This document shows positions 1 to 20,506 of a DNA stretch of 21,610 nt, piece after piece. The notes beneath the pieces are model-generated. The model made no database searches, was not told where the DNA came from, and saw only the letters and a list, made by a program, of their open reading frames with translations. Positions within the stretch are counted from its first letter, which is position 1; every line of letters begins with the position of its first letter. This stretch comes from Bacillota bacterium (GTDB taxonomy: Bacteria; Bacillota; Clostridia; Lachnospirales; CAG-274), in contig JAFYGI010000020.1 of NCBI GenBank assembly GCA_017543265.1, forward strand, positions 1 through 21,610, given 5' to 3'. A program made the translations under genes and the position numbers.

Positions 1-1141
1 GGGCGGTGCCGTGGTCGCGGGACAATGGCTGGGCTCCGAGGACAGGGAGCGGGCATCCGAGTCCGCGCATCAGCTTATATGGTTTATAACCATTTTGTCG
101 GTTATTGTAATGGGACTGGTGTATTTTTACAGCAATGCCCTATTATTTAATGTATTTGGCAAAATAACGGACGAGGTGCGCGGCTATGCCCGTATTTATC
201 TTTTGATAGTGGCGGCATCCATCCCGTTTATTGCACTTTATAACGGCGGTTCCGCCGTGTTTCGCGCCATGGGCGATTCCAAAACGCCTATGTCCATTTC
301 CATAAAAATGAATATTATCAATGTTGTCGGAAACGCAATACTTATTTACGGCTTTCACTTCGGCGCGGAGGGCGTTGCCATCCCCACCCTTGTTTCAAGG
401 ATGTACGCTGCCTTTGCCGTTATATTTTTACTGCTTAACGACAAATTGACCTTACATATAAAAAAGACGTTGAAATATATCCCCAATTTTAACATAATAA
501 AAAAAATACTGTATATCGGCGTGCCCTACGGCATGGAAAACAGTATGTTTCAGTTGGGTAAAATATTGGTATTAAGTCTTGTATCCACCTTTGGTACCTT
601 TGCCATAGCCGCAAATGCAGTCTGCAACGTACTGGCAGGCTTTCAGATACTCCCCGGCATGGCCGCGGGTCTGGCGGTAACAACGGTAATTTCACGCTGT
701 ATAGGCGCAAACGACTACGAACAGGCACGGTATTACACCAAAAAGCTTCACGCCTTTGCATGGGCGGGGCTTTTGGTATCGGTGTTATTGATATGGCTTA
801 TTTTGTCGCCCGTGCTTAAAATATACAATCTCTCGCCCGAGGCGACCGATGCCTCCGTAAAAATAATGTATCTTCACGGCATCTGTGCGCTTGCCGTCTG
901 GCCTTTAAGTTTTACCCTGCCCTCCGTGTTCAGGGCTGCGGGCGATATAAAATTTGCAATGGTCGTAGCCATAGTTTCCATGTGGATATGCCGCGTTGTT
1001 ATGAGCTACGTTCTGGGCAAATATCTCGGCCTGGGCGTGTTTGGTATATGGGTCGCAATGATAATGGACTGGTGCGCAAGAAGTATCTGCTTTGCCGCAC
1101 GCTATAAAAGCGGCAAATGGAAAGGCAAGGCTGTGGTGTAA
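1..1141 (+). CDS. MATE family multidrug/oligosaccharidyl-lipid efflux transporter, 5'-truncated by the window edge (no in-frame stop before position 11; frame continues to position 2)
   Basis: ORF-track protein is polytopic and highly hydrophobic with paired MATE-like repeats (GVPYGMEN, internal duplicated 6-TM halves). Stop at 1139-1141. The first in-frame codon is GTG, so this is a C-terminal part of a longer gene. Confidence 0.8.
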   Translation, partial: GGAVVAGQWLGSEDRERASESAHQLIWFITILSVIVMGLVYFYSNALLFNVFGKITDEVRGYARIYLLIVAASIPFIALYNGGSAVFRAMGDSKTPMSISIKMNIINVVGNAILIYGFHFGAEGVAIPTLVSRMYAAFAVIFLLLNDKLTLHIKKTLKYIPNFNIIKKILYIGVPYGMENSMFQLGKILVLSLVSTFGTFAIAANAVCNVLAGFQILPGMAAGLAVTTVISRCIGANDYEQARYYTKKLHAFAWAGLLVSVLLIWLILSPVLKIYNLSPEATDASVKIMYLHGICALAVWPLSFTLPSVFRAAGDIKFAMVVAIVSMWICRVVMSYVLGKYLGLGVFGIWVAMIMDWCARSICFAARYKSGKWKGKAVV

Positions 1142-1237
1142 AACAAGCCCCATTATGAATTATTATAAATAATCATCATAAAGTGTTCTTATAACAATGT
1201 TTATTTTGTCCGAATACGGTGAATGGATGCGTGCATA

Positions 1238-1633
1238 TTATACATTTATTTTGTATATATATTCTATGCTCATACAGAGAACCGTCCCCTGTATGACCTC
1301 GATGTAGGCGTTATTTGTGTTTTCGCCCGTGCTGTAGTTCCAAACAAGAGCTATTGTGTTTGAGGTAGTTGTTTCCGTTGCCGTTTCTGTCACGGTCTCG
1401 GTCGTACCCTCTGTTGTTATTTCGATCAAGCTTTGAAAACCGGTTACTCCAACAATGTTGTCGCTTGCATCATAGCTGTAAGATGCCGATTTTGTTGTCT
1501 GCTCGTTTGAGTAGTCAACCTGTGTGAGTCTGCCTAAAGCATCGTATTCGTAATGAGCTGCAAAGGCAAGGTTTGCGTTTATTAAAACTCCCATAAGTGT
1601 AAGCAGTAAGAGTGTTATTTGTTTGTTTTGCAT
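1238..1633 (-). CDS. Secreted YD-repeat N-terminal fragment (Sec signal peptide plus two YD/RHS repeats) that ends in the 28-bp repeat copy A
   Basis: N-terminus MQNKQITLLLLTLMGVLINANLAFA is a classic signal peptide. YEYDALGRLTQVDY and YSYDASDNIVGV are YD repeats. Strong RBS AAAGGAGGACAAATA before the ATG (rc of 1634-1650). C-terminal codons VIQGTVLCMS are encoded by repeat A. Confidence 0.55.
   Translation of the reverse strand: MQNKQITLLLLTLMGVLINANLAFAAHYEYDALGRLTQVDYSNEQTTKSASYSYDASDNIVGVTGFQSLIEITTEGTTETVTETATETTTSNTIALVWNYSTGENTNNAYIEVIQGTVLCMSIEYIYKINV
1269..1296. repeat. 28-bp repeat copy A, CTCATACAGAGAACCGTCCCCTGTATGA: perfect inverted copy of 4578-4605, with palindromic 8-bp arms TCATACAG/CTGTATGA around an asymmetric 11-nt core
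   Basis: Direct string comparison; the reverse complement of 4578-4605 is identical over 28 nt. It lies in-frame at the 3' end of the 131-aa ORF. Confidence 0.9.
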
Positions 1634-1797
1634 TATTTGTCCTCCTTTCAGGTGAGGTAATTGTTATTTGGGAGAATTATGCAGACAAAATATCAGCATA
1701 ATTTGTATAAATATTGGCAACAGGACAGTTTCTATGTTTCCATGTGGTAGTATGAATTTTTTCATCTCATATACATCTCAACTCCCATATGACTTAT

Positions 1798-2628
1798 TCA
1801 GTTTTTGGTATTATCAATAATATAATCAATTAATTTATTTGGAATTGGAAGATGAAATAATTCATTTTTATAATCTACATTTTCAAACATAATTGGGGGC
1901 ATTTCAATCGTTTTAATATCGGCAATAACACCATACTTTATCGCACATTTAAGCAAAGCCACAGAGTAGTAATCAATTGTTACAGAAAAATCTGTGCCAC
2001 CTAATCTTCTCTTTTTCAACATTAACTCAATATTCTTTTTAAATTCTTTTTCATTACCACAAACCAAGCTATTAATTGCAGGTTTTAAAGAATAAATATA
2101 TTGATAATAATTTATTGAATCTAGTTCTATAAAACTTGGTGGTTGAAGCTTTTCTAACCCGTTTTTGACTTTATTAATATTACCGCAAAATAAATTCAAT
2201 AAAATCGAATCTTCATAAATGTGCATAAACTCGTTTACTGCATTAATCGAAATGATTTTACAAGCAAATTCCTCATAACTATGTTTAATTTGCCATTCAG
2301 GAATTAAATCCGATACAATTCCTTCACAATATAATTTATACATTTTTGTAAATGCTTTAATTGATAGATAAGTATTACATATCACTTCAATGCCTTTATT
2401 CTCTAATTGATACATATTTGTTGCAATATCAAACAATACATACGCCATTTTCCAATCACGCAACAAATCTTTATCTTGATTACTGTTTGAAAAAAAATTT
2501 CCCATAATAGATTCTATATTGTAATAATGATAATCATTGTTGTATTGCATTTTTTCGTATGATTTTATAAAATCATTATGTTTGTCTATTTTTTTCTGCC
2601 ATGTTTTTGTCTTATACTGTAAAGCCAT
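1798..2628 (-). CDS. Putative RHS-toxin immunity protein (hypothetical, 276 aa)
   Basis: Starts 21 bp downstream of the RHS ORF stop with RBS TGAGG (rc of 2633-2637). Extremely AT-rich coding sequence compared with flanking genes. No recognisable catalytic motif. Position and composition are typical of a cognate immunity gene. Confidence 0.45.
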   Translation of the reverse strand: MALQYKTKTWQKKIDKHNDFIKSYEKMQYNNDYHYYNIESIMGNFFSNSNQDKDLLRDWKMAYVLFDIATNMYQLENKGIEVICNTYLSIKAFTKMYKLYCEGIVSDLIPEWQIKHSYEEFACKIISINAVNEFMHIYEDSILLNLFCGNINKVKNGLEKLQPPSFIELDSINYYQYIYSLKPAINSLVCGNEKEFKKNIELMLKKRRLGGTDFSVTIDYYSVALLKCAIKYGVIADIKTIEMPPIMFENVDYKNELFHLPIPNKLIDYIIDNTKN

Positions 2629-2649
2629 ATAAAAACCTCATATATATTA

Positions 2650-4581
2650 TTAACCAGTGATATTTTTTATACCAAAACCAAGTTGGAGTTGTGTACATGA
2701 TGAACAAGAACGAAATGTAGTAGCCTGTCTAGCGCCTTTAACACTTAAACCATTAGTCATTAACGCTTGAATTCCTCTTGCTTCTGCATGTTTTAGCTCG
2801 GTTGCATTTATAATGCTTCCTTTCCAATTTGTCCAAATGTTATTTTGATATTGAACCCCTTTGCCAGATGGTATAATTACATCATTCCCAAAAATTTCCT
2901 TAGCCTTTTCTATGGATTTTTTCCCCAGAACACAGTTATTCTTGGTGACTATTACACTTCCGTTAGATTCAGTTACACAAATAGGATTCACTTTCCCCCA
3001 CCATTTATTACCATATTCAGCATAATGAATTTCATGAGCAGCATTTGCCAAAAAATCATCGGAATATTTGCCGAATTGAATGTATCCATGTTGGTCTTTC
3101 AACGCAGCAGCTATTTTGCTTTTTAATTGATTAAATTTGGGTGAAAGGATATTGGATAACTCTTGTAAATGTGGTGTGACAAATTTCTTTAATGCACCAC
3201 CAACTTTATATCCAGCATATAGTTCAAGAACAGTTTTTGAAGCATCAAGCGCCACACCCTCAGTATTATAGCCAAGCATATATGCTTCTTCATCTGATAT
3301 TGTAGTCCAAGGCAGGTATTGGTAAATACCTTTTCCTATACTTTTAGCAGTTTGCTTACCGCTGTCCCACGCTCCGCTTGCGATACTTTTAAGAGTTATA
3401 TCTCCGTTACGAATTCCTGTAATGGTATCAGTAATTCCATTGTATGCACTATTGAAAGCGTTACTAATCTGACCTTTAGGATCCATAATGAAATCCCCAA
3501 TTCCTTTTGTTACGGAATTATTGAAGTCTTCCATTCGGGCATATATACCTCTACCGAAGTCATCATATTGCGTAGACCAGTTTATCATACCTGTAGGGTC
3601 TATACTCATTATAGGATCGCATTCTACATAAGAATACCAGTTTAAGCCATCACTAACAGGGTCAACATTGATAAATCTCTGTGTCTGCGGGTTATAATAC
3701 CTTGCACGCATATAATAAAGCCCGTTTGCATCAGTTTCGACACCGTACTTACCCACATAAAGGAAAGGTGTTTCATCCGCCCCTGTTCTCTTTACCATAT
3801 TACCGTAAGCATCATAGAACATGGTATCAACCACAGCGCCGCCGAGAGTTGTCATTGCTGTTGTGCTGCCGCGATAGTCGTAATGATACAAGCGATAAGT
3901 TGTGCCTGTTTCTTCACTTATTAAGCCAAGACCATAAACATAATAAGTCGTTTCGCCGTCTGTTGTAGCCATAAGCACTCTGCTTAATTCCGCGTTAGGG
4001 TCAACAACAAAGTTTGTGGTAGTTCCGTTCTCTGTCTTTGATGTTCTGTAACCCTCTGCATCATAAGTATATGAGCAACTTATCGCCGAGCCACTTATAG
4101 TTACGTCTGTAAGCTGATTAAGGCTGTCAAAGGTAAGGTTGCCAAACTCATTGCCGAGCGGAGTTTTAAGCATATTGCCGTCAGCATCGTAAGGTATAGA
4201 TGTACCGTTGAAGTTTGTCAGGCGGTTAGCCGCACTGTACGACATTGCCGCATCATCAACACTTATTTCATTAACATCAGGCTCATTTGCGGAGATCTCA
4301 TCCGTAATGTTACCGTCTGCATCATAAGTATAAGAATACTCATTGATAATTGTGTTGCCGTTTTGGTCTATGGTGTGAGTAAGCTGTCCTTCGGCATTAT
4401 AGGTGTTTGTTTCCACACTTCCGTCGGGGCGTGTAGTCGTTTTCAATCTGCCGTTATTATCATAGGTATAGATAGTTACTCTGTTTGCCCAATCCTGTAC
4501 AGCGGCAAGCTGATTATTTGCGTTATAGCTGTACCTTACTATCTTATTATCGGGATAGGTAAGCTGTGTAAGGTAACTCAT
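2650..4581 (-). CDS. RHS/YD-repeat polymorphic toxin, N-terminally truncated 'orphan-like' module: about 330 aa of YD repeats, an RHS core end (RARYYNPQTQRFINVDPV...DPTGM), and an about 310-aa unassigned C-terminal toxin domain
   Basis: Multiple YxYDxxGxL repeats (YSYNANNQL, YTYDNNGRL, YTYDADGNI, YTYDAEGYR). Hyperconserved RHS core terminus RxRYYxPxxxRFxxxDP...DPxG at aa 292-332. No signal peptide. The ATG sits inside 28-bp repeat copy B, with an in-frame stop 12 codons upstream. Confidence 0.8.
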   Translation of the reverse strand: MSYLTQLTYPDNKIVRYSYNANNQLAAVQDWANRVTIYTYDNNGRLKTTTRPDGSVETNTYNAEGQLTHTIDQNGNTIINEYSYTYDADGNITDEISANEPDVNEISVDDAAMSYSAANRLTNFNGTSIPYDADGNMLKTPLGNEFGNLTFDSLNQLTDVTISGSAISCSYTYDAEGYRTSKTENGTTTNFVVDPNAELSRVLMATTDGETTYYVYGLGLISEETGTTYRLYHYDYRGSTTAMTTLGGAVVDTMFYDAYGNMVKRTGADETPFLYVGKYGVETDANGLYYMRARYYNPQTQRFINVDPVSDGLNWYSYVECDPIMSIDPTGMINWSTQYDDFGRGIYARMEDFNNSVTKGIGDFIMDPKGQISNAFNSAYNGITDTITGIRNGDITLKSIASGAWDSGKQTAKSIGKGIYQYLPWTTISDEEAYMLGYNTEGVALDASKTVLELYAGYKVGGALKKFVTPHLQELSNILSPKFNQLKSKIAAALKDQHGYIQFGKYSDDFLANAAHEIHYAEYGNKWWGKVNPICVTESNGSVIVTKNNCVLGKKSIEKAKEIFGNDVIIPSGKGVQYQNNIWTNWKGSIINATELKHAEARGIQALMTNGLSVKGARQATTFRSCSSCTQLQLGFGIKNITG

Positions 4582-4605
4582 ACAGGGGACGGTTCTCTGT
4601 ATGAG
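4578..4605. repeat. 28-bp repeat copy B, TCATACAGGGGACGGTTCTCTGTATGAG: inverted partner of copy A
   Basis: Reverse complement is identical to 1269-1296. It encodes LIQRTVPCMS in the RHS ORF frame, where copy A encodes VIQGTVLCMS in the 131-aa ORF. Confidence 0.9.
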
Positions 4606-4614
4606 TTCAGTAAT

Positions 4615-4776
4615 TTATAATGTTAGTTTACCATTTTCCATTTTTTCAAGAAAATATTTGTAACTATCTTTTGCTTCTTGTGGAGCATCAGGCAAAATAA
4701 TTACTTTCCCATTCTCATCAATATCCCACCAATTAGGGTCTTTGTACCAACATTCCAAATACCAATCACCGGTCAT
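4615..4776 (-). CDS. Small 53-aa ORF (MTGDWYLECWYKDPNWWDIDENGKVIILPDAPQEAKDSYKYFLEKMENGKLTL); possible orphan immunity-like protein. It is not in the supplied ORF track because it is under 60 aa.
   Basis: Hand translation of the rc of 4615-4776: ATG to TAA, in frame, AT-rich, GGGGG 10-14 nt upstream of the ATG. It ends 1 nt before repeat copy B. Trp/acidic-rich small proteins are common in toxin-immunity loci. Confidence 0.25.
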   Translation of the reverse strand: MTGDWYLECWYKDPNWWDIDENGKVIILPDAPQEAKDSYKYFLEKMENGKLTL

Positions 4777-4823
4777 AAGTAACTGCCCCCATCGCCATAC
4801 ACTAACCGCCCCCCCGTGTGAGC

Positions 4824-5519
4824 CTATTTTTCCGCCTTACACTGTCTATTCCTGTCATCGACAAGCATATCGGTATATTTTATTTTTTCCGCAAGTTCCT
4901 CCGTTTTGCCGGACAAAACAAGTTCCTTTATTTCATCTATACTCTGTGATATTTTTTCTTCAATATCGGCAAGGGCGGGGGATGAAACGGGGTCGCTGTA
5001 TTTAAGCTTTTCGGAAAGTTTTTCAAGCAGTTTTTTAGCCTCGGCATCCTCGCATTTATCCGCAAGCGATGAAATATCCAACTTAAAGGTCTTTGTCTGC
5101 TGTATTTTTCCTTTTATATTGCTGTCAACGCTTTCTATTATATCCCTTGCATTATCCATGCCCACCGTGCCTATAAGGGCTGCGGCAAGCAATATCATGC
5201 TTATAACGGCTGCCACCCAAGCGGGCGTATGTGTTGACAAATTGACAATAAAAAATATCAGCGACAGCACTATCTGCGCACCCATGTAATAAAAGCCGAT
5301 ACGCATAAGCGGTATGCCGTAGACCTTTGACCTTGTGCCTTCACCGAGAAGTCCCCTGTATGTCATGGCACAGCCAAGGCCTATTGAGATAATGCCAAAA
5401 ACAAACATCGTCACGCAGGCCGCGTTTCTTACAAACGGCACCACAAAAAACACCAGTACAAACACCGCAAGTATTATGCCGAATACCGCGATCACGGAAT
5501 TTTTCTTTTTATTATCCAT
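4824..5519 (-). CDS. Membrane protein with 4 TM helices and a C-terminal coiled-coil (YdjH-like third gene of the SPFH operon). The likely ATG is at 5519; the track starts at GTG 5525.
   Basis: Hydrophobic helices at aa 10-120 followed by a charged, K/E-rich helical tail. ATG 2 nt after the upstream TGA, with SD-like AAGGGGTGA. Confidence 0.55.
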   Translation of the reverse strand: MDNKKKNSVIAVFGIILAVFVLVFFVVPFVRNAACVTMFVFGIISIGLGCAMTYRGLLGEGTRSKVYGIPLMRIGFYYMGAQIVLSLIFFIVNLSTHTPAWVAAVISMILLAAALIGTVGMDNARDIIESVDSNIKGKIQQTKTFKLDISSLADKCEDAEAKKLLEKLSEKLKYSDPVSSPALADIEEKISQSIDEIKELVLSGKTEELAEKIKYTDMLVDDRNRQCKAEK

Positions 5520-5521
5520 TA

Positions 5522-6928
5522 TCACTCACCCCTTTTTTTGCCGCAGTTGGGACAAAAGCTGCTTGTTATGCCCTTTGTGCCGCACTCACAGTCCCACGAG
5601 CCGCTCTGCGGACGTTTTTTACCGCAGTTGGGGCAAAATGCACTTAAAATATCCTTTGTGCCGCACTCACAGTCCCAGCCCTTTTCGGGTACGGGCTTTT
5701 TTGCGCCGCAGTCGGGACAGAAATTTGTTGTTATGCCTGTTTTGCCGCAATCGGGGCATTTCCAGCCGTCGGGCACCTCACCCTGCACTACTGCGCCGAA
5801 GCCTGCGCCCACCTGTGCGGAGTTGTCCATTATTGGGTTAAGCGCATCCTTTGTCATATTTATCACGCCGCCCATTGCACCAAGAGTAACGCCAAGCCCC
5901 GCAATATCGCCAAGGCCGCCGCCCGTGCCGCCGCTGCCGCCAGTTATGCCGTTTTGCATGGCCTCCATGCCGACCTTGCGCGCAGTTTCCTGCTGATAGG
6001 TGTAACCTTTGGCTTTCATTTCCTCGGCTTCCGCAAATGCCTGCATTTTGTAAGCCTCGGCCTCGGCAGCCGCTTTTATCTTCGTCGCCTCTGCCTCGCC
6101 CTGTGCGCCTACCATTTTAAGCTGTGCGGCGGTCTGTGCCTCTACTATCTTTCTGCCCTGCGCAGCCTCGGCCTCGGCACGCCTTATCTCCTCCTCGCGC
6201 ACCTTCAGGGTCTTATCGGCAAACTGCTGTTTAAGACGTTTGAAGTTCGGGTCGTCGTCGGGTGTCATTACGCTTGTAACGTAAAATTCGGGCATTACAA
6301 GGCCGTATTCATCCAGCGTTTCATTTATTATTGTACGAAGCTTTTCCGACAATACGTCAAGATAGGCATCAATTTCAAGTATATTTATATTTTCTTCCTT
6401 GATGACCCGCGCAAGACAGGACTTGACCTTGTTCATTACCAGCGCCTTGAACTTGCCCGTACCGTAGGCCGTACCCTCGCCGAGCATTTCGTTTTGCAGC
6501 AGGCCGTCTGTCGTACCGACAATTTTTAATATCAGCTTGCGCGAGTCATTGACACGCAGGTTAAAGTTTCCGCTTGCGCCTATTTCTATATGCAGTCCCG
6601 ATGCGGGGTCAAACAGGCGCACCTTGCTGTCCGTGCCCCATTTAATGCCCATCTGCGTGGTCATATTGATAAAATACACCTCGGAGTGGAAAACATTTTC
6701 TCCACCCGTACCCAGCTTGACTACCTCGCGCAAAAGCGGGATGTTCTGGGTCTCCAGGGTATATCTGCCCGCGCCGAACAGGTCAAGCGCACGGCCGTCA
6801 CAGAAGAAAAGCGCCTCCTGCGACTCATGCACGATAAGCTGTGTGCCTAAATTAAAATCCTCCTTGGGGTGCCTGTAAACAAAAACATTGTTGTCACCCT
6901 CGTACTTTAATACGCTTATAAGTTCCAT
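5522..6928 (-). CDS. SPFH/band-7-like (YdjI-type) protein with a Gly-rich linker and three tandem C-terminal zinc ribbons. The likely start is ATG at 6928; the track's 6949 is a TTG.
   Basis: N-terminal region VLKYEGDNNVFVYRHP...LIVHESQEALFFCDGRALDLFGAGRYTLETQNIPLL matches the conserved start of the SPFH-domain band-7 family (PF13421-like). The AEAEA-rich helical region is typical of flotillin-like proteins. The C-terminus carries 3x CPxCG...FCPxCG. Confidence 0.7.
   Translation of the reverse strand: MELISVLKYEGDNNVFVYRHPKEDFNLGTQLIVHESQEALFFCDGRALDLFGAGRYTLETQNIPLLREVVKLGTGGENVFHSEVYFINMTTQMGIKWGTDSKVRLFDPASGLHIEIGASGNFNLRVNDSRKLILKIVGTTDGLLQNEMLGEGTAYGTGKFKALVMNKVKSCLARVIKEENINILEIDAYLDVLSEKLRTIINETLDEYGLVMPEFYVTSVMTPDDDPNFKRLKQQFADKTLKVREEEIRRAEAEAAQGRKIVEAQTAAQLKMVGAQGEAEATKIKAAAEAEAYKMQAFAEAEEMKAKGYTYQQETARKVGMEAMQNGITGGSGGTGGGLGDIAGLGVTLGAMGGVINMTKDALNPIMDNSAQVGAGFGAVVQGEVPDGWKCPDCGKTGITTNFCPDCGAKKPVPEKGWDCECGTKDILSAFCPNCGKKRPQSGSWDCECGTKGITSSFCPNCGKKRGE
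5525..5767. repeat. Three tandem units of about 81 bp (about 75-80% identical) that encode the triplicated zinc-ribbon tail of the SPFH-like protein
   Basis: Visible periodicity on the + strand: ccgcagttgggacaaaagctg... / ccgcagttggggcaaaatgcac... / cgccgcagtcgggacagaaatttg.... Protein units GW(K/D)C(P/E)(D/C)G.K.I...FCP(D/N)CG.KK. Confidence 0.7.
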
Positions 6929-6932
6929 TACA

Positions 6933-7715
6933 TCACTGCCTTTCCGCAAAAAACGCTATAATTATTACCAAAACCACGGGTATCCCCACCGCAAGCCCCG
7001 CGGCGAGCCCCGTACTAAGCTTAAACACATACGCCAGCACCACAAACAGCAAAAGCGGCACCAGCAGGACAAAGGAAAGTATCTCTATTATCATTGACCA
7101 TACGCCGTTTCGCCAGACCGCATACCCAAGCAAAGCCGAGGCTGCGATAAAAATAAGCACGCACAGCGCGATAGACACATCCGCTCTTTCCTTTAAGACA
7201 AAAAATACTATTGCGGGGATTATCATGCCCACCGTCACCGCGTAGGGTATGCGGCGCTTGCCTGCCGCAGCAAGCTCGACACGGCATTTTTGCGCCATTT
7301 TGTCCGCATCCTTCACGCCGCCCAGCTTTTCAAACTCCGCCAAGGCCTTTGCATAGGCCTTTTTTTCATAATGTGCAACAGCCGCGGCATAGGCCTTTAT
7401 CTGCCCAGCCCTGCTTTGTCCGTCCTTGCAAAGACGCATAAGATCCTCGGCCGTTTCGGATGAACGGTGTACGCATTCCGCCGCCGCACTTTTGTACAGT
7501 ATCGCGGCCTCCTCGGCCTGTTTTACGCCGGGTGCATCCTGTGCAAGAAGCTCATTTGCCTTGTTAAGTTTTTCGATTATATGTATATATTCCTTGTAGT
7601 CGGCATCCAGATCCTCCAAAGACCAGCGGTTGCCGCAGTTTTCACATACACAGACCCCCGTCAGATAGTCGTTTGCAAGGTCGCCGCCGCATATCATACA
7701 TTTAAAAGCAGCCAT
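6933..7715 (-). CDS. Zinc-ribbon (CxxC...CxxC) plus TPR-like plus C-terminal multi-TM protein; YdjG-like first gene of the SPFH operon
   Basis: N-terminus MAAFKCMICGG...CVCENCG gives two CxxC pairs. Ala/Lys-rich helical middle. Hydrophobic C-terminal third. RBS GGAGGGTG before the ATG. Only a 4-nt gap to the next gene. Confidence 0.6.
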   Translation of the reverse strand: MAAFKCMICGGDLANDYLTGVCVCENCGNRWSLEDLDADYKEYIHIIEKLNKANELLAQDAPGVKQAEEAAILYKSAAAECVHRSSETAEDLMRLCKDGQSRAGQIKAYAAAVAHYEKKAYAKALAEFEKLGGVKDADKMAQKCRVELAAAGKRRIPYAVTVGMIIPAIVFFVLKERADVSIALCVLIFIAASALLGYAVWRNGVWSMIIEILSFVLLVPLLLFVVLAYVFKLSTGLAAGLAVGIPVVLVIIIAFFAERQ

Positions 7716-20254: not shown

Positions 20255-20380
20255 TTAATTAAGAAAGTTGCCTACTTTTGCAACTTCTTTTTGTTTCGTA
20301 TTCTGTAAAATATGTGTATAAGATACCGTTGTTGAATAATTGGCGTGACCCATTACGAGGGACAGGGGACGGTTCTTTGT
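20255..20380 (-). pseudogene. C-terminal remnant (about 40 aa) of a tyrosine recombinase/integrase, truncated at degenerate repeat copy C
   Basis: ...LVMGHANYSTTVSYTHILQNT... matches the XerC/D-type C-terminal box LGHxxxxTTxxYTH with the catalytic Tyr. Nothing upstream in any frame continues the fold. Followed by a hairpin AAGTTGC-N8-GCAACTT (20265-20286). Confidence 0.5.
20362..20380. repeat. Degenerate copy C of the 28-bp repeat core (ACAGGGGACGGTTCTTTGT, 1 mismatch to the copy-B core); the arms are eroded
   Basis: String comparison. One minus-strand frame reads RRQRTVPCPS*, which echoes LIQRTVPCMS. Confidence 0.6.
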
Positions 20381-20452
20381 CTCCGCCGGTAATTTTATAT
20401 TTTTCATAAACACATCTCTTTCAGCTCTTGAGTAAAACATTTATTTACAAAG

Positions 20453-20506
20453 TCATACAGGGGACAGTTTTGTGTATGAGTCACAGCAAAGCCTCCCCTG
20501 TATGAC
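20453..20506. repeat. Head-to-head degenerate copies D (20453-20480, TCATACAGGGGACAGTTTTGTGTATGAG) and E (20481-20506) of the 28-bp repeat. Together they form a 13-bp-arm palindrome GTCATACAGGGGA...TCCCCTGTATGAC.
   Basis: D differs from B at 3 core positions. The rc of E is GTCATACAGGGGAGGCTTTGCTGTGA (A-orientation). The outer 13-mers are exact reverse complements. Confidence 0.65.

Follow-up and report, generated by a model that had tools for sequence, protein, structure and literature searches.

We find that a perfect 28-bp inverted repeat around an RHS toxin fragment in Clostridia DNA belongs to a dispersed family of REP/RAYT-type hairpins. The two 28-mers are probably this organism's REP variant, capping both ends of a leftover RHS-immunity-YD/CBM77 unit. 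A shufflon-like inversion switch, which an earlier note on the same DNA had proposed, is not supported. The window is the whole stretch analysed, 21,610 nt in length.

Structure of the 28-bp pair

Copy A (1269-1296, minus strand) and copy B (4578-4605, plus strand) are exact reverse complements across all 28 nt, as first reported. Dinucleotide-preserving shuffles gave no match to the pair in 100 trials with up to 3 mismatches tolerated. The inverted repeat is real and far beyond chance. Target-site duplications were not found around the pair.

The arms of each copy are palindromic over 8 bp (TCATACAG/CTGTATGA), and those of copy B are longer at 11 bp (AACTCATACAG/CTGTATGAGTT). The hairpin-like character seen in the earlier note holds for these arms but the 11-nt core between them is not asymmetric, being itself a quasi-palindrome. 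Folding of the element's G-rich strand gives a stem of 12-15 bp that includes two G.U/G.T pairs and closes on a loop of 3 nt; the opposite strand has A.C mismatches at the same places. The stem extension of this organism's variant is TCAT/ATGA.

Copy B has the G-rich form on the plus strand, and its stem reaches 4575-4608 and folds with 15 bp at -19 kcal/mol (z = -4.0). On one side of it is the stop codon of a 53-aa ORF, and on the other the truncated RHS gene starts with its first retained base. Copy A has the G-rich form on the minus strand, in the sense direction of the gene upstream, folds there with a 12-bp stem at -16.7 kcal/mol (z = -3.0) and caps the 3'-truncated YD/CBM77 gene.

In the core sites of invertases and tyrosine recombinases, the spacer is 2 or 6-8 bp long. 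The 8-11-8 layout is unfit for such sites but suits a hairpin that one strand forms around a 3-nt loop. Hence, of the proposal that the pair is a recombinase core site and not a random duplication, the non-randomness and a strand-transfer type of site survive but the recombinase-core geometry does not.

A dispersed repeat family

As a dispersed hairpin repeat, mostly outside genes, the 19-nt core ACAGGGGACGGTTCTNTGT recurs in many Clostridia MAGs. It has at least 188 copies across at least 120 stretches of a 596-Gb collection, against about 69 chance matches expected in the whole collection. Among the matches listed, 47 of 120 loci carry 2-6 core copies, and an open frame of at least 150 aa covers 32% of the repeat copies versus 86% of all bases.

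Covariation is seen in the four base pairs next to the core, which are Watson-Crick in 0.91, 0.70, 0.70 and 0.55 of the copies among the matches listed, with shuffled maxima of 0.54, 0.54, 0.53 and 0.39. In the same matches, close doublets have a fixed polarity (24 '+-' versus 0 '-+') and the repeat has a strand bias of 67:26 on the downstream side of genes and 22:40 on the upstream side. Downstream copies tend to have the G-rich form in the sense strand, and upstream copies the opposite form.

The Y1_Tnp genes of two loci (L034 and L059) have inverted repeat copies within 100 nt on their flanks. The products of about 240-250 aa match best, in NCBIfam, the REP-associated tyrosine transposase model, with 79.1 and 71.5 bits just below the curated cutoff of 80. 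Truncated versions occur in L103, L104, L109, L141 and L143, and in the closest relative the RAYT was seen only as a truncated gene. In vitro, RAYT-type enzymes cut single-stranded REPs and join them again (PMC3479197).

Because the outer stem covaries, the doublet polarity is fixed and Y1 genes are flanked by inverted copies, the 28-mers belong to a REP/RAYT-type family. The partner enzyme of the repeat is likely an IS200-like, RAYT-like Y1/HUH transposase.

Further copies of the element exist beyond the pair, mostly away from RHS genes, at odds with an RHS-specific site. Identical or near-identical ones lie in the EamA/APH spacer, beside a HigB-like TA pair in L138, where the 28-mer is identical, and by an Imm53 gene and a RAYT remnant. 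Around the latter two, a close relative has at least 7 repeat copies in 2 kb. The RHS locus is not the specific home of the repeat.

Since an identical 28-mer occurs elsewhere, the perfect identity of the pair is explained by a common master sequence that was active recently. That the two copies are inverted is in keeping with the family's strand bias around genes.

Genes of the RHS cassette

The 643-aa ORF at 2650-4581 (minus strand) is a 5'-truncated orphan RHS gene with RHS_repeat, Rhs_assc_core and YD_repeat_2x matches. Its parts are a YD shell of about 330 aa, the RHS-associated core (TIGR03696, residues 256-332) and a C-terminal deaminase-like toxin domain (dCMP_cyt_deam_1, E = 1.4e-4, below its cutoff). 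In relatives the similarity is confined to the first ~51% of its residues, and related main RHS genes are longer, at >1300-1500 aa. A population variant (L007) has the ORF split. The first ATG of the window ORF lies inside an arm of copy B, and no Shine-Dalgarno-like sequence was seen by eye for an ORF starting there. We take the fragment to be, in all likelihood, a silent orphan and the cassette a static, non-functional leftover.

Directly downstream of the toxin, the 276-aa ORF at 1798-2628 (minus strand, GC 0.259 or 26%) is a putative cognate immunity gene by position only, with no match in Pfam or NCBIfam. In L134 and L135, ORFs of 205-215 aa occupy the same place behind the RHS gene. The window gene may still protect the cell.

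The 131-aa ORF at 1238-1633 (minus strand) had been read as a signal-peptide/YD fragment. By homologue alignment it is no RHS N-terminus but the 5' third of a separate secreted YD/CBM77 gene, with DNA homology to 1300, followed by read-through across copy A to the first stop; the alignment diverges past ...ENTNNAY. Full-length counterparts of 325-332 aa, with a signal peptide, a YD repeat, a Thr-rich linker and CBM77, come after the RHS and immunity genes of L134 and L135, and RHS-immunity-CBM77 is the conserved gene order in both. The RHS toxin of L134 differs, being Peptidase_M91.

On the outer flank, the 53-aa ORF at 4615-4776 (minus strand) just upstream of copy B has its stop codon 10 nt from this copy and no family match in the profile search. 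GC is 36% for 1297-4577 and 48% elsewhere in the window. The description of the interior as a low-GC module is correct for the whole interval but not for all its parts, as the RHS shell (42%) and the YD gene (43%) are near the flank values.

Breakpoints at the hairpins

Homology to the intact RHS gene of L134 begins at window position 4574 and homology to its intact CBM77-family gene stops at 1300, both 2-5 nt from the hairpins. Two other genomes have independent REP/RHS-fragment junctions (L136 and L023), and the REP polarity at the junction varies, with the C-form in the window and L023 and the G-form in L136. As REP hairpins also abut RHS fragments in these two genomes, REPs probably took part in the rearrangements of the cassette.

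No clean empty site was found, and a 93% MatE orthologue diverges wholly past the MatE stop codon. Four long, apparently untruncated RHS ORFs (L023, L039, L064 and L092) have no REP inside. REP copies do lie in the RHS/immunity array spacers of six loci (L023, L125, L092, L114, L039 and L064) and around the immunity genes of L141. Among the matches listed, 7 of 120 loci have RHS genes, in a REP-selected and so biased sample for a REP/RHS association. In the independently found arrays L149-L151, about 1/6 of the RHS-fragment boundaries have a REP and one carries an IS3 remnant instead.

A conserved three-gene unit of RHS toxin, immunity and secreted YD/CBM77 genes has lost the 5' part of its RHS gene and the 3' part of its CBM77 gene, and a REP copy caps each break. 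We propose, as the likeliest history, that REP copies in such variable, toxin-rich DNA helped in the rearrangements that cut the unit from its original context. The REPs could have come to sit exactly at the breakpoints either by insertion and then REP-REP deletion or exchange, or by breakage and illegitimate joining at the hairpins.

Reading across the repeats

The 28-mer was thought to be coding in both ORFs that it touches. Copy A does lie within an ORF, in its tail past the homology, and copy B contributes only the first ATG. VIQGTVLCMS makes up residues 113-122 of the 131-aa ORF. LIQRTVPCM(S) at copy B is confirmed as a peptide, with the residues LIQRTVPC upstream of the ATG and after the in-frame stop of the 53-aa ORF. 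Each orientation of the 28-mer is open in two of three frames. The near-identical peptides thus exist, but they are no hallmark of inversion, because a palindromic 28-mer gives them trivially. Nor would inversion join the ORFs, because the two share a strand and the 131-aa ORF is no part of an RHS gene.

Recombinase genes of any kind are absent from the 21.6-kb window. Four independent contigs spanning both copies have one orientation, gene order and orientation agree in all contigs, and in 13 contig retrievals (12 distinct contigs) none ends at a repeat copy; being consensus metagenome assemblies, they could leave a minority inverted subpopulation unseen. On these grounds, together with the wrong geometry, the trivial peptides, the ORFs that inversion would not join and the copies in non-RHS contexts, an in-gene inversion or shuffling site is not supported.

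Alternative origins

REP/RAYT cassette capture is an unlikely alternative, although the foremost one. Here a segment made up of an RHS core fragment, toxin, immunity gene and REP would be mobilised or imported, with the hairpin as its fixed end and the other end at variable points within RHS genes, and integration by RHS-core homology would displace the old toxin tip and leave REP|RHS-fragment junctions. If true, it would make a polymorphic-toxin cassette system like an integron or a one-ended transposon. The REPs 0-5 nt from RHS-fragment breakpoints at different gene positions in three independent genomes speak for it, as do those in the array spacers and around immunity genes, the RHS genes among REP-selected loci and the in vitro processing by RAYT-type enzymes. 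However, most boundaries of the REP-independent arrays have no REP, the junction polarity is inconstant, circular or excised forms were not seen, and the REP/RHS proximity comes from the biased sample. REPs would land there anyway, since the immunity-to-RHS-fragment interval is the only sizeable spacer in the arrays. Less probable still is a coincidence, in which unrelated illegitimate recombination truncated the unit and REPs inserted later in neutral junction DNA. The family accumulates in non-coding DNA, is dense in the toxin/immunity DNA of the close relative and is missing from some boundaries in other arrays, all as a coincidence would have it, but a random later insertion would rarely be so precise four times, with a hairpin 0-5 nt from the homology breakpoint at both window junctions, L136 and L023.

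A programmed inversion is very improbable. A recombinase encoded elsewhere would flip 1297-4577 and change the expression of the RHS fragment, placing it downstream of and co-directional with MatE, and copies 3.3 kb apart with perfect identity suit this, as does a minor flipped population compatible with consensus assemblies. Besides the missing recombinase gene, the single orientation and the unsuitable geometry, the site belongs to a family mostly away from RHS genes, no sensible fusion protein results and most of the shell is missing from the RHS fragment. We give the least credence to a non-autonomous transposon ('transporter IS' or MITE with cargo), with the 28-mers as terminal inverted repeats for a DDE transposase elsewhere. 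Perfect terminal repeats around a 3.3-kb segment without transposase look the part, but target-site duplication is absent, the cargo is two truncated genes, contiguous with intact counterparts in relatives, and not complete passengers, the identical sequence occurs also singly or as tight doublets, and the family enzyme is a Y1 transposase, a class not using terminal inverted repeats.

Comparison with known systems

In the R64 shufflon (Rci) and Gin/Cin/Hin systems, the recombinase gene is adjacent and the crossover is 7 bp (sfx) or 2 bp (gix/hix). Alternative C-terminal exons in opposite orientations are fused to a constant N-terminal part, and both orientations occur in populations. The window locus resembles them in having inverted repeats around gene 3' parts and overlapping ORFs, but has none of those features.

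Integron attC sites are recognised as a folded single strand and mark cassette boundaries. They are 57-141 bp with R and L boxes and are recombined by IntI next to attI. The likeness is in the imperfect palindromes and, in some relatives, in REP copies separating small toxin/immunity ORFs; these attC features are otherwise absent, and the cassettes here are gene fragments.

Orphan rhs-CT/immunity cassettes of Enterobacteria reportedly arise from C-terminal displacement (Jackson et al. 2009; Koskiniemi et al. 2014). The window cassette is similar in its 5'-truncated RHS gene with a shell/core part, a divergent low-GC toxin tip and a downstream immunity gene, and in that the shell is common to close relatives whereas toxins differ (Peptidase_M91 in L134). 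Unlike those, it has no full-length rhs gene adjacent in the window, has a REP hairpin at either end and includes a third conserved gene (secreted YD/CBM77), also truncated. PMC3482391 gives the general framework for rhs-CT/immunity cassettes.

Rickettsia palindromic elements and intragenic REPs are in-frame insertions within otherwise intact genes (PMC3733652). The window repeats are likewise palindromic and readable as part of annotated ORFs, but lie at the ends of truncated genes.

The closest parallel in type is the REP/REPIN elements with RAYT (TnpA_REP) of E. coli, Pseudomonas and Stenotrophomonas (PMC2817692, PMC3116915, PMC3479197). Shared are an imperfect palindrome of about 20-35 nt, repeated and mostly extragenic, a stem conserved as structure with conserved, strand-specific mismatches, frequent inverted doublets and an IS200-like Y1 transposase gene with inverted copies on either side. 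However, Firmicutes are absent from the REP survey (PMC3733652) whereas the window family is from Clostridia. Classical REPs are largely lineage-specific but the 19-nt core here is identical across many families, even phyla. The window family is also without the 5' GTAG tag, its CGTC tetranucleotide sits in the loop and not at the end, and the flanked transposases fall just under the NCBI RAYT cutoff.

Further copies in the window

Three more related copies occur in the window, at 20362-20380, 20453-20480 and 20479-20506. The first (20358-20384 with its stem, plus strand) sits in the spacer between the EamA and APH genes and has one mismatch in the core; its stem extension also differs, being GGG.../...CTCC. 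The other two, copy C (plus strand) and copy E (minus strand), stand head to head in a REPIN-like doublet at 20452-20506, directly after the APH gene stop, with a fold of -30 kcal/mol (z = -6.0). Synteny of two ~98.5%-identical relatives with the window ends exactly at this doublet (20445).

Hairpin structure of the inverted repeat

The 28-bp inverted repeat claimed in the earlier note is exact. Copy A (1269–1296, G-rich form on the minus strand) and copy B (4578–4605, G-rich form on the plus strand) have 3281 nt between them in the window repeat search. The claimed 8-bp palindromic arms, TCATACAG/CTGTATGA, are likewise present in both copies, and those of copy B reach 11 bp. With up to 3 mismatches, the 28-mer matches the window at both copies and at a third place, 20453–20480, and finds no match in 100 dinucleotide-preserving shuffles of the window.

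The 11-nt core between the arms had been taken as asymmetric, but the fold of the G-rich strand reveals it to be quasi-palindromic itself. This strand forms a 12–15-bp stem with two G·U (G·T) pairs and a 3-nt loop at −16.7 to −19 kcal/mol, with z = −3 to −4 for copies A and B. On the complementary strand the G·U positions become A·C mismatches, and pairing is limited to the outer arms. Invertase and shufflon core sites consist of two binding arms round a 2-bp or 6–8-bp crossover region. The recombinase-site layout once read into the 28-mer does not hold, as the element is either 8–11-bp arms round 11 nt or a 12–15-bp one-strand stem with a 3-nt loop.

Rfam has no family above the gathering score anywhere in the window. 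An intrinsic terminator was also considered and rejected, there being no terminator-like site within 1100–5000 and no T-run after copy A or B.

A three-gene unit with two broken ends

The module genes are all on the minus strand, and MatE converges on them from the plus strand. A 53-aa ORF (4776–4615) comes first and copy B follows it. Next are the 643-aa RHS tip (4581–2650), with YD/RHS repeats, an RHS-associated core (TIGR03696, residues 256–332) and a C-terminal extension of ~310 aa, and, 21 nt downstream, a 276-aa ORF (2628–1798). A 131-aa ORF (1633–1238) is last and has copy A near its end. Low GC between the repeats is true of the interval (36%) and most of all of the 276-aa ORF (26%) against 48% in the rest of the window, but not of the RHS-shell/YD parts at 42–43%.

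Relatives match only the first ~51% of the 643-aa protein, its shell and core, and related RHS genes that are long and apparently untruncated measure at least 1320–1530 aa, so this ORF is an RHS tip truncated at its 5′ side. Its C-terminal ~310 aa are divergent and common to few relatives. The last ~260 aa (2650–3450, minus strand) match Pfam dCMP_cyt_deam_1 below the cutoff (E = 1.4e-4) and PDB 7fh4 weakly (E = 0.31), and contain by eye an HAE...SCSSC zinc motif. By these features the toxin domain resembles a deaminase acting on cytidine or nucleic acids. Deaminase toxins carried by RHS proteins attract interest as a source of base editors.

In the RHS fragment most of the shell and any export domain are missing, and the sole start codon lies inside a hairpin arm. 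No obvious ribosome-binding site is seen by eye at that codon. The fragment is probably silent. The putative immunity from the 276-aa ORF may still be working.

The 131-aa ORF, once described as a signal-peptide/YD fragment from the RHS N-terminus, belongs instead to a different, CBM77-family gene. Its homologues are alignable up to ‘...WNYSTGENTNNAY’ and divergent beyond. Two related RHS loci (L134 and L135) have the gene order of an RHS gene with a Peptidase_M91 toxin, a 205–215-aa ORF and a 325–332-aa protein with a signal peptide, one YD repeat, a Thr-rich linker and a CBM77 domain. The window module is the same three-gene unit with another toxin/immunity pair and with both outer genes cut.

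The two cuts are placed at base level by alignment with L134. In blastn the module gives two colinear blocks, window 4574–3634 and 1731–1300. On the copy B side, homology to the intact L134 RHS gene starts 2–3 nt past the hairpin, at L134 position 357, and the L134 gene extends further upstream. On the copy A side, homology to the intact CBM77-family gene stops 3–5 nt short of the hairpin. Thus, what is left of a larger conserved unit has a 28-mer capping each of its two broken ends.

No REP (short palindromic repeat) follows MatE in its orthologues at 93%, 77% and 74% identity (L144–L148), where synteny is lost right after MatE and the pre-insertion site is not reconstructable. The closest orthologue found (L144, 93% protein identity) shares rplJ-rplL-MatE with the window, and its synteny ends at the MatE stop. 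Past it, from L144:11344 onward, DUF4291, PARG, NADAR and NrtR genes take the place of the window sequence from 1142–1147 onward. The entire stretch after MatE thus varies from relative to relative.

One orientation and no support for a switch

The earlier note proposed that the repeats are in-gene inversion sites, as in the shufflons and the Gin/Cin switches, and asked whether orientation varies among related strains. The 13 contigs retrieved are 12 distinct ones from independent metagenomes, 99.6–100% identical to the window. Four independent assembled contigs span both repeats (one returned as both L001 and L006, and L003, L005 and L007), and all have one order and one orientation in consensus, behind which a minor subpopulation may be hidden. 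None of the 12 ends at copy A or B. Being so nearly identical and colinear, they are uninformative on deeper history.

What variation there is lies elsewhere. Two independent assemblies break or diverge at window 3159 in the toxin-coding part (L005:7879–7945 and the start of L009), which suggests a co-existing population haplotype with a different toxin tip. The L007 variant differs at two positions in the RHS ORF, and its gene call is split into 295 and 319 aa. The ORF splits in L005 and L001 were considered as inversions and rejected, for they are at scaffold gaps (N runs) with divergent sequence, away from the repeats. We read them as strain heterogeneity or scaffolding.

Reading through in both directions, held to be a hallmark of such sites, carries little here since two of the three frames are open whichever way the element is turned. 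Palindromic arms necessarily yield similar peptides in the two orientations, IQGTVLCM and LIQRTVPCM. The 131-aa and 643-aa ORFs would not become fused by inversion either, both being on the minus strand and in different genes, and the constant 5′ part of RHS is absent from the window. Pfam searches of all 20 larger ORFs find no serine or tyrosine recombinase and no transposase in the window.

Nor is the 28-mer confined to this RHS locus. An identical one stands beside a Gp49/HTH (HigBA-like) pair in L138, and close variants lie on both sides of an Imm53 gene and of a remnant of a RAYT, the IS200-like Y1 transposase partner of REPs. An invertible RHS toxin switch would be a new way of varying toxins, but with no recombinase in the window, a single orientation, no sensible fusion and a site widespread outside RHS, the evidence does not support it and we consider it very improbable.

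A REP family with a conserved core

The core query ACAGGGGACRGTTYTNTGT was scanned against a 596-Gb collection with one genome per species and gives at least 188 copies in at least 120 stretches. Chance alone would give about 69 core matches in the whole collection, so isolated matches in odd taxa may be noise. Among the matches listed, however, 47 of 120 loci hold 2–6 copies, and a second copy has a chance of only ~1e-6.

Their MAG labels include Lachnospiraceae, Oscillospiraceae, Acutalibacteraceae, Blautia, Coprococcus and Ruminococcus, and also, with others besides, Christensenellales, Syntrophomonadaceae, Peptococcaceae, Alkaliphilus, Atribacterota and Enterorhabdus among the matches listed. 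The 19-nt core (window 1274–1292, 4582–4600 and 20362–20380) is identical across MAGs of many Clostridia families. Multi-copy loci with it occur also under the labels Atribacterota and Enterorhabdus among the matches listed. Classical REP families usually keep to one lineage, so a range this wide suggests that the core spread horizontally or that it is a recognition site under strong constraint.

The family is conserved as a structure. Among the matches listed, the core is invariant and the four flanking base pairs vary yet stay complementary, being Watson–Crick in 0.91, 0.70, 0.70 and 0.55 of the copies, above all 200 shuffles. The stem extensions are TCAT/ATGA in copies A and B and taag/ctta, ggag/ctcc or ggg/ccc in others. 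The window holds five copies in all: A, B, a single copy with another stem extension (20362–20380) and a head-to-head doublet (20452–20506), a REPIN-like inverted pair, the last three in the EamA/APH spacer.

The copies are arranged with a polarity. Among the matches listed, 24 close pairs run from the G-rich to the C-rich form (G-form then C-form) and none the other way, and 32% of the copies lie within an open frame of at least 150 aa, as against 86% of all bases. Up to 200 nt past the end of an ORF, the G-form is on the sense strand in 67 cases and on the other in 26, and upstream of ORF starts the ratio is 22 to 40, again among the matches listed. This bias is compatible with an RNA 3′-end hairpin role or a replication-strand effect. 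It makes C-form upstream and G-form downstream the commonest layout to be expected for a transcription unit that has REPs at both ends, and the RHS module has this layout. Gene callers routinely translate through the REP and yield peptides such as ‘QGTVL’, ‘RTVPC’ and ‘EPSPV’.

Partner transposase and assignment

Two intact transposase genes, above the Pfam cutoff for PF01797 (Y1_Tnp, IS200-like), are flanked by the REP. The gene at L034:3988–4740 has copies at 3923(+) and 4762(−), and that at L059:6482–7402 at 6453(+) and 7294(−). In both, the inverted copies are each within 100 nt of the gene, with the G-form upstream and the C-form downstream. The sole NCBIfam match is NF047646 (REP-associated tyrosine transposase), whose scores of 79.1 and 71.5 bits fall just short of its cutoff, 80. 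Truncated transposases accompany REPs in L103, L104, L109, L141 and L143.

The last two loci belong to a close relative of the source organism, 97–98% identical in the DNA upstream of APH. At L141:300–2200, as also in L143, at least seven REP copies are found in ~2 kb, and two inverted copies flank a short ORF starting MPRTARKQSKTGVYHIMLRGN. The L141 REPs separate a truncated RAYT gene and small AT-rich ORFs, one of which encodes the immunity protein Imm53, much as spacers would in a poly-immunity array.

REP/REPIN-RAYT systems are defined as repetitive, extragenic and palindromic, forming doublets (REPINs) and flanking a Y1 transposase gene (PMC2817692, PMC3116915). Our family is of the REP/RAYT type since it is repeated, extragenic, palindromic and doublet-forming and flanks such a gene. 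As in those systems, the many short palindromic copies are mostly extragenic, compensatory stem changes keep the hairpin, inverted doublets are a common unit and inverted REPs flank the Y1 gene. It differs from them in having no unpaired 5′ GTAG tag, and its CGTC is in the loop of the C-rich strand, not terminal; a terminal GTAG or CGTC tag belongs to the REP definition (PMC3733652).

That broad REP survey lists no Firmicutes (PMC3733652), while Group 1 RAYTs are classified as occurring also in Clostridia (PMC5581495). A full-text literature search for the motif returned unrelated primer-type matches only. A Clostridial REP family with a core so unusually conserved over many gut and rumen lineages appears undescribed in the accessible REP literature.

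REPs at rearrangement breakpoints

Near the other end of the window, homology between it and two relatives, ~98.5% identical over the APH gene, and between those two, ends exactly at the REP doublet, at 20445. Beyond this doublet after the APH gene are three different sequences (window 20445; L137:1100–1190; L142:1230–1300). At this REP site synteny breaks.

RHS genes are present in 7 of the 120 REP-selected loci among the matches listed. L136 has an RHS remnant that reaches 51 nt further 5′ in the RHS gene than the window fragment does, and a REP from the window's subfamily directly adjoins its 5′ end. The hairpin loop of this REP has the opposite orientation. The two junctions are independent of each other. 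In L023, downstream of a long RHS ORF, the C-form half of a REP doublet abuts an RHS fragment (‘GHRTVPCL|TYTYTYDNGG...’), and a 284-aa ORF comes next, ending in a G-form REP (‘...QGTVL’). This repeats the window's architecture. REPs are also located 16–55 nt upstream of truncated RHS frames in L125, L092 and L114.

At L039:150–3550, a 1513-aa RHS open frame is followed by three paralogous ORFs of ~280–330 aa with shared C-terminal motifs. They are each separated by clusters of 2–5 REP copies.

Three RHS arrays (L149–L151) were found via protein homology, independently of REPs. There, one fragment boundary has a degenerate REP-like doublet, one an IS3-type remnant and the rest neither, so REPs are not upheld as a universal RHS-cassette boundary. 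At L151:4955–5370, a remnant of an IS3-type transposase orfA (MYDKQFKIAAVKLVLDD...) is fused directly to a 5′-truncated RHS fragment, indicating that mobile-element remnants other than REPs are also at RHS-fragment boundaries.

Origin of the remnant

We show that the 28-mers are REP-family hairpins and that between them lies a static RHS-immunity-CBM77 remnant truncated at both ends. The whole is probably best explained by REP hairpins capping the remnant, with the REPs party to rearrangements. REP copies would have taken part in those that made the fragment, either by REP insertion followed by REP–REP deletion or exchange, or by breakage and illegitimate joining at the hairpins. No microhomology is seen at the junctions. 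The perfect identity of copies A and B comes from a shared master sequence, present elsewhere too, and their inverted orientation fits the transcription-related bias of the family.

That the REPs instead inserted later and by coincidence is distinctly unlikely. Some proximity is expected in the arrays because the immunity-to-RHS spacer is their sole sizeable non-coding gap. What needs explaining is the direct abutment, within 0–5 nt, at four junctions in three genomes. A transposon with terminal inverted repeats is extremely improbable: no target-site duplication is found between the flanks ...ATTCTATG and TTCAGTAA..., and the cargo is two truncated genes plus toxin and immunity, not complete passenger or transposase genes. 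A cassette inserted into a REPIN doublet is likewise rejected on polarity, since the doublets always run ‘+−’ whereas the cassette is bounded by ‘−’ then ‘+’ on the plus strand.

A bolder possibility is that the Clostridial REP/RAYT captures and shuffles polymorphic-toxin cassettes. A mobilised segment of RHS tip and immunity gene would have the REP as its fixed end and a second end at varying places in the RHS shell, and integration via RHS homology would build orphan arrays. This would account for the direct joins of REP hairpins and RHS fragments in three unrelated genomes and would give REP/RAYT systems a concrete function, but we hold it unlikely.

That REPs and RHS-fragment breakpoints coincide amounts to a lead and falls short of a result. 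Hairpins at breakpoints, including RHS-fragment edges in three genomes, suggest that they help in shaping toxin/immunity islands. If a systematic survey bore this link out, it would matter for the long-open question of REP/RAYT function.

Both REP/RAYT systems and orphan rhs cassettes are already known kinds. The module resembles the latter in its RHS-associated core, variable C-terminal toxin, small downstream ORF and 5′ truncation relative to full-length rhs genes. It differs in having no main full-length rhs gene upstream in the window, where a 53-aa ORF, a 231-aa membrane protein and an SPFH protein are found. In L023, L092 and L151, the RHS fragments do sit downstream of a main rhs gene.

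The remaining window ORFs encode MatE, the SPFH/zinc-ribbon protein, HydABC-type hydrogenase subunits, FtsH, LarC, an EamA transporter and an APH-type kinase. The SPFH/Band_7 gene (ORF 5522–6949) contains at 5534–5761 three tandem 63-nt direct repeats with 81–84 nt spacing, which encode Cys-rich zinc-ribbon units at the C-terminus of the protein.
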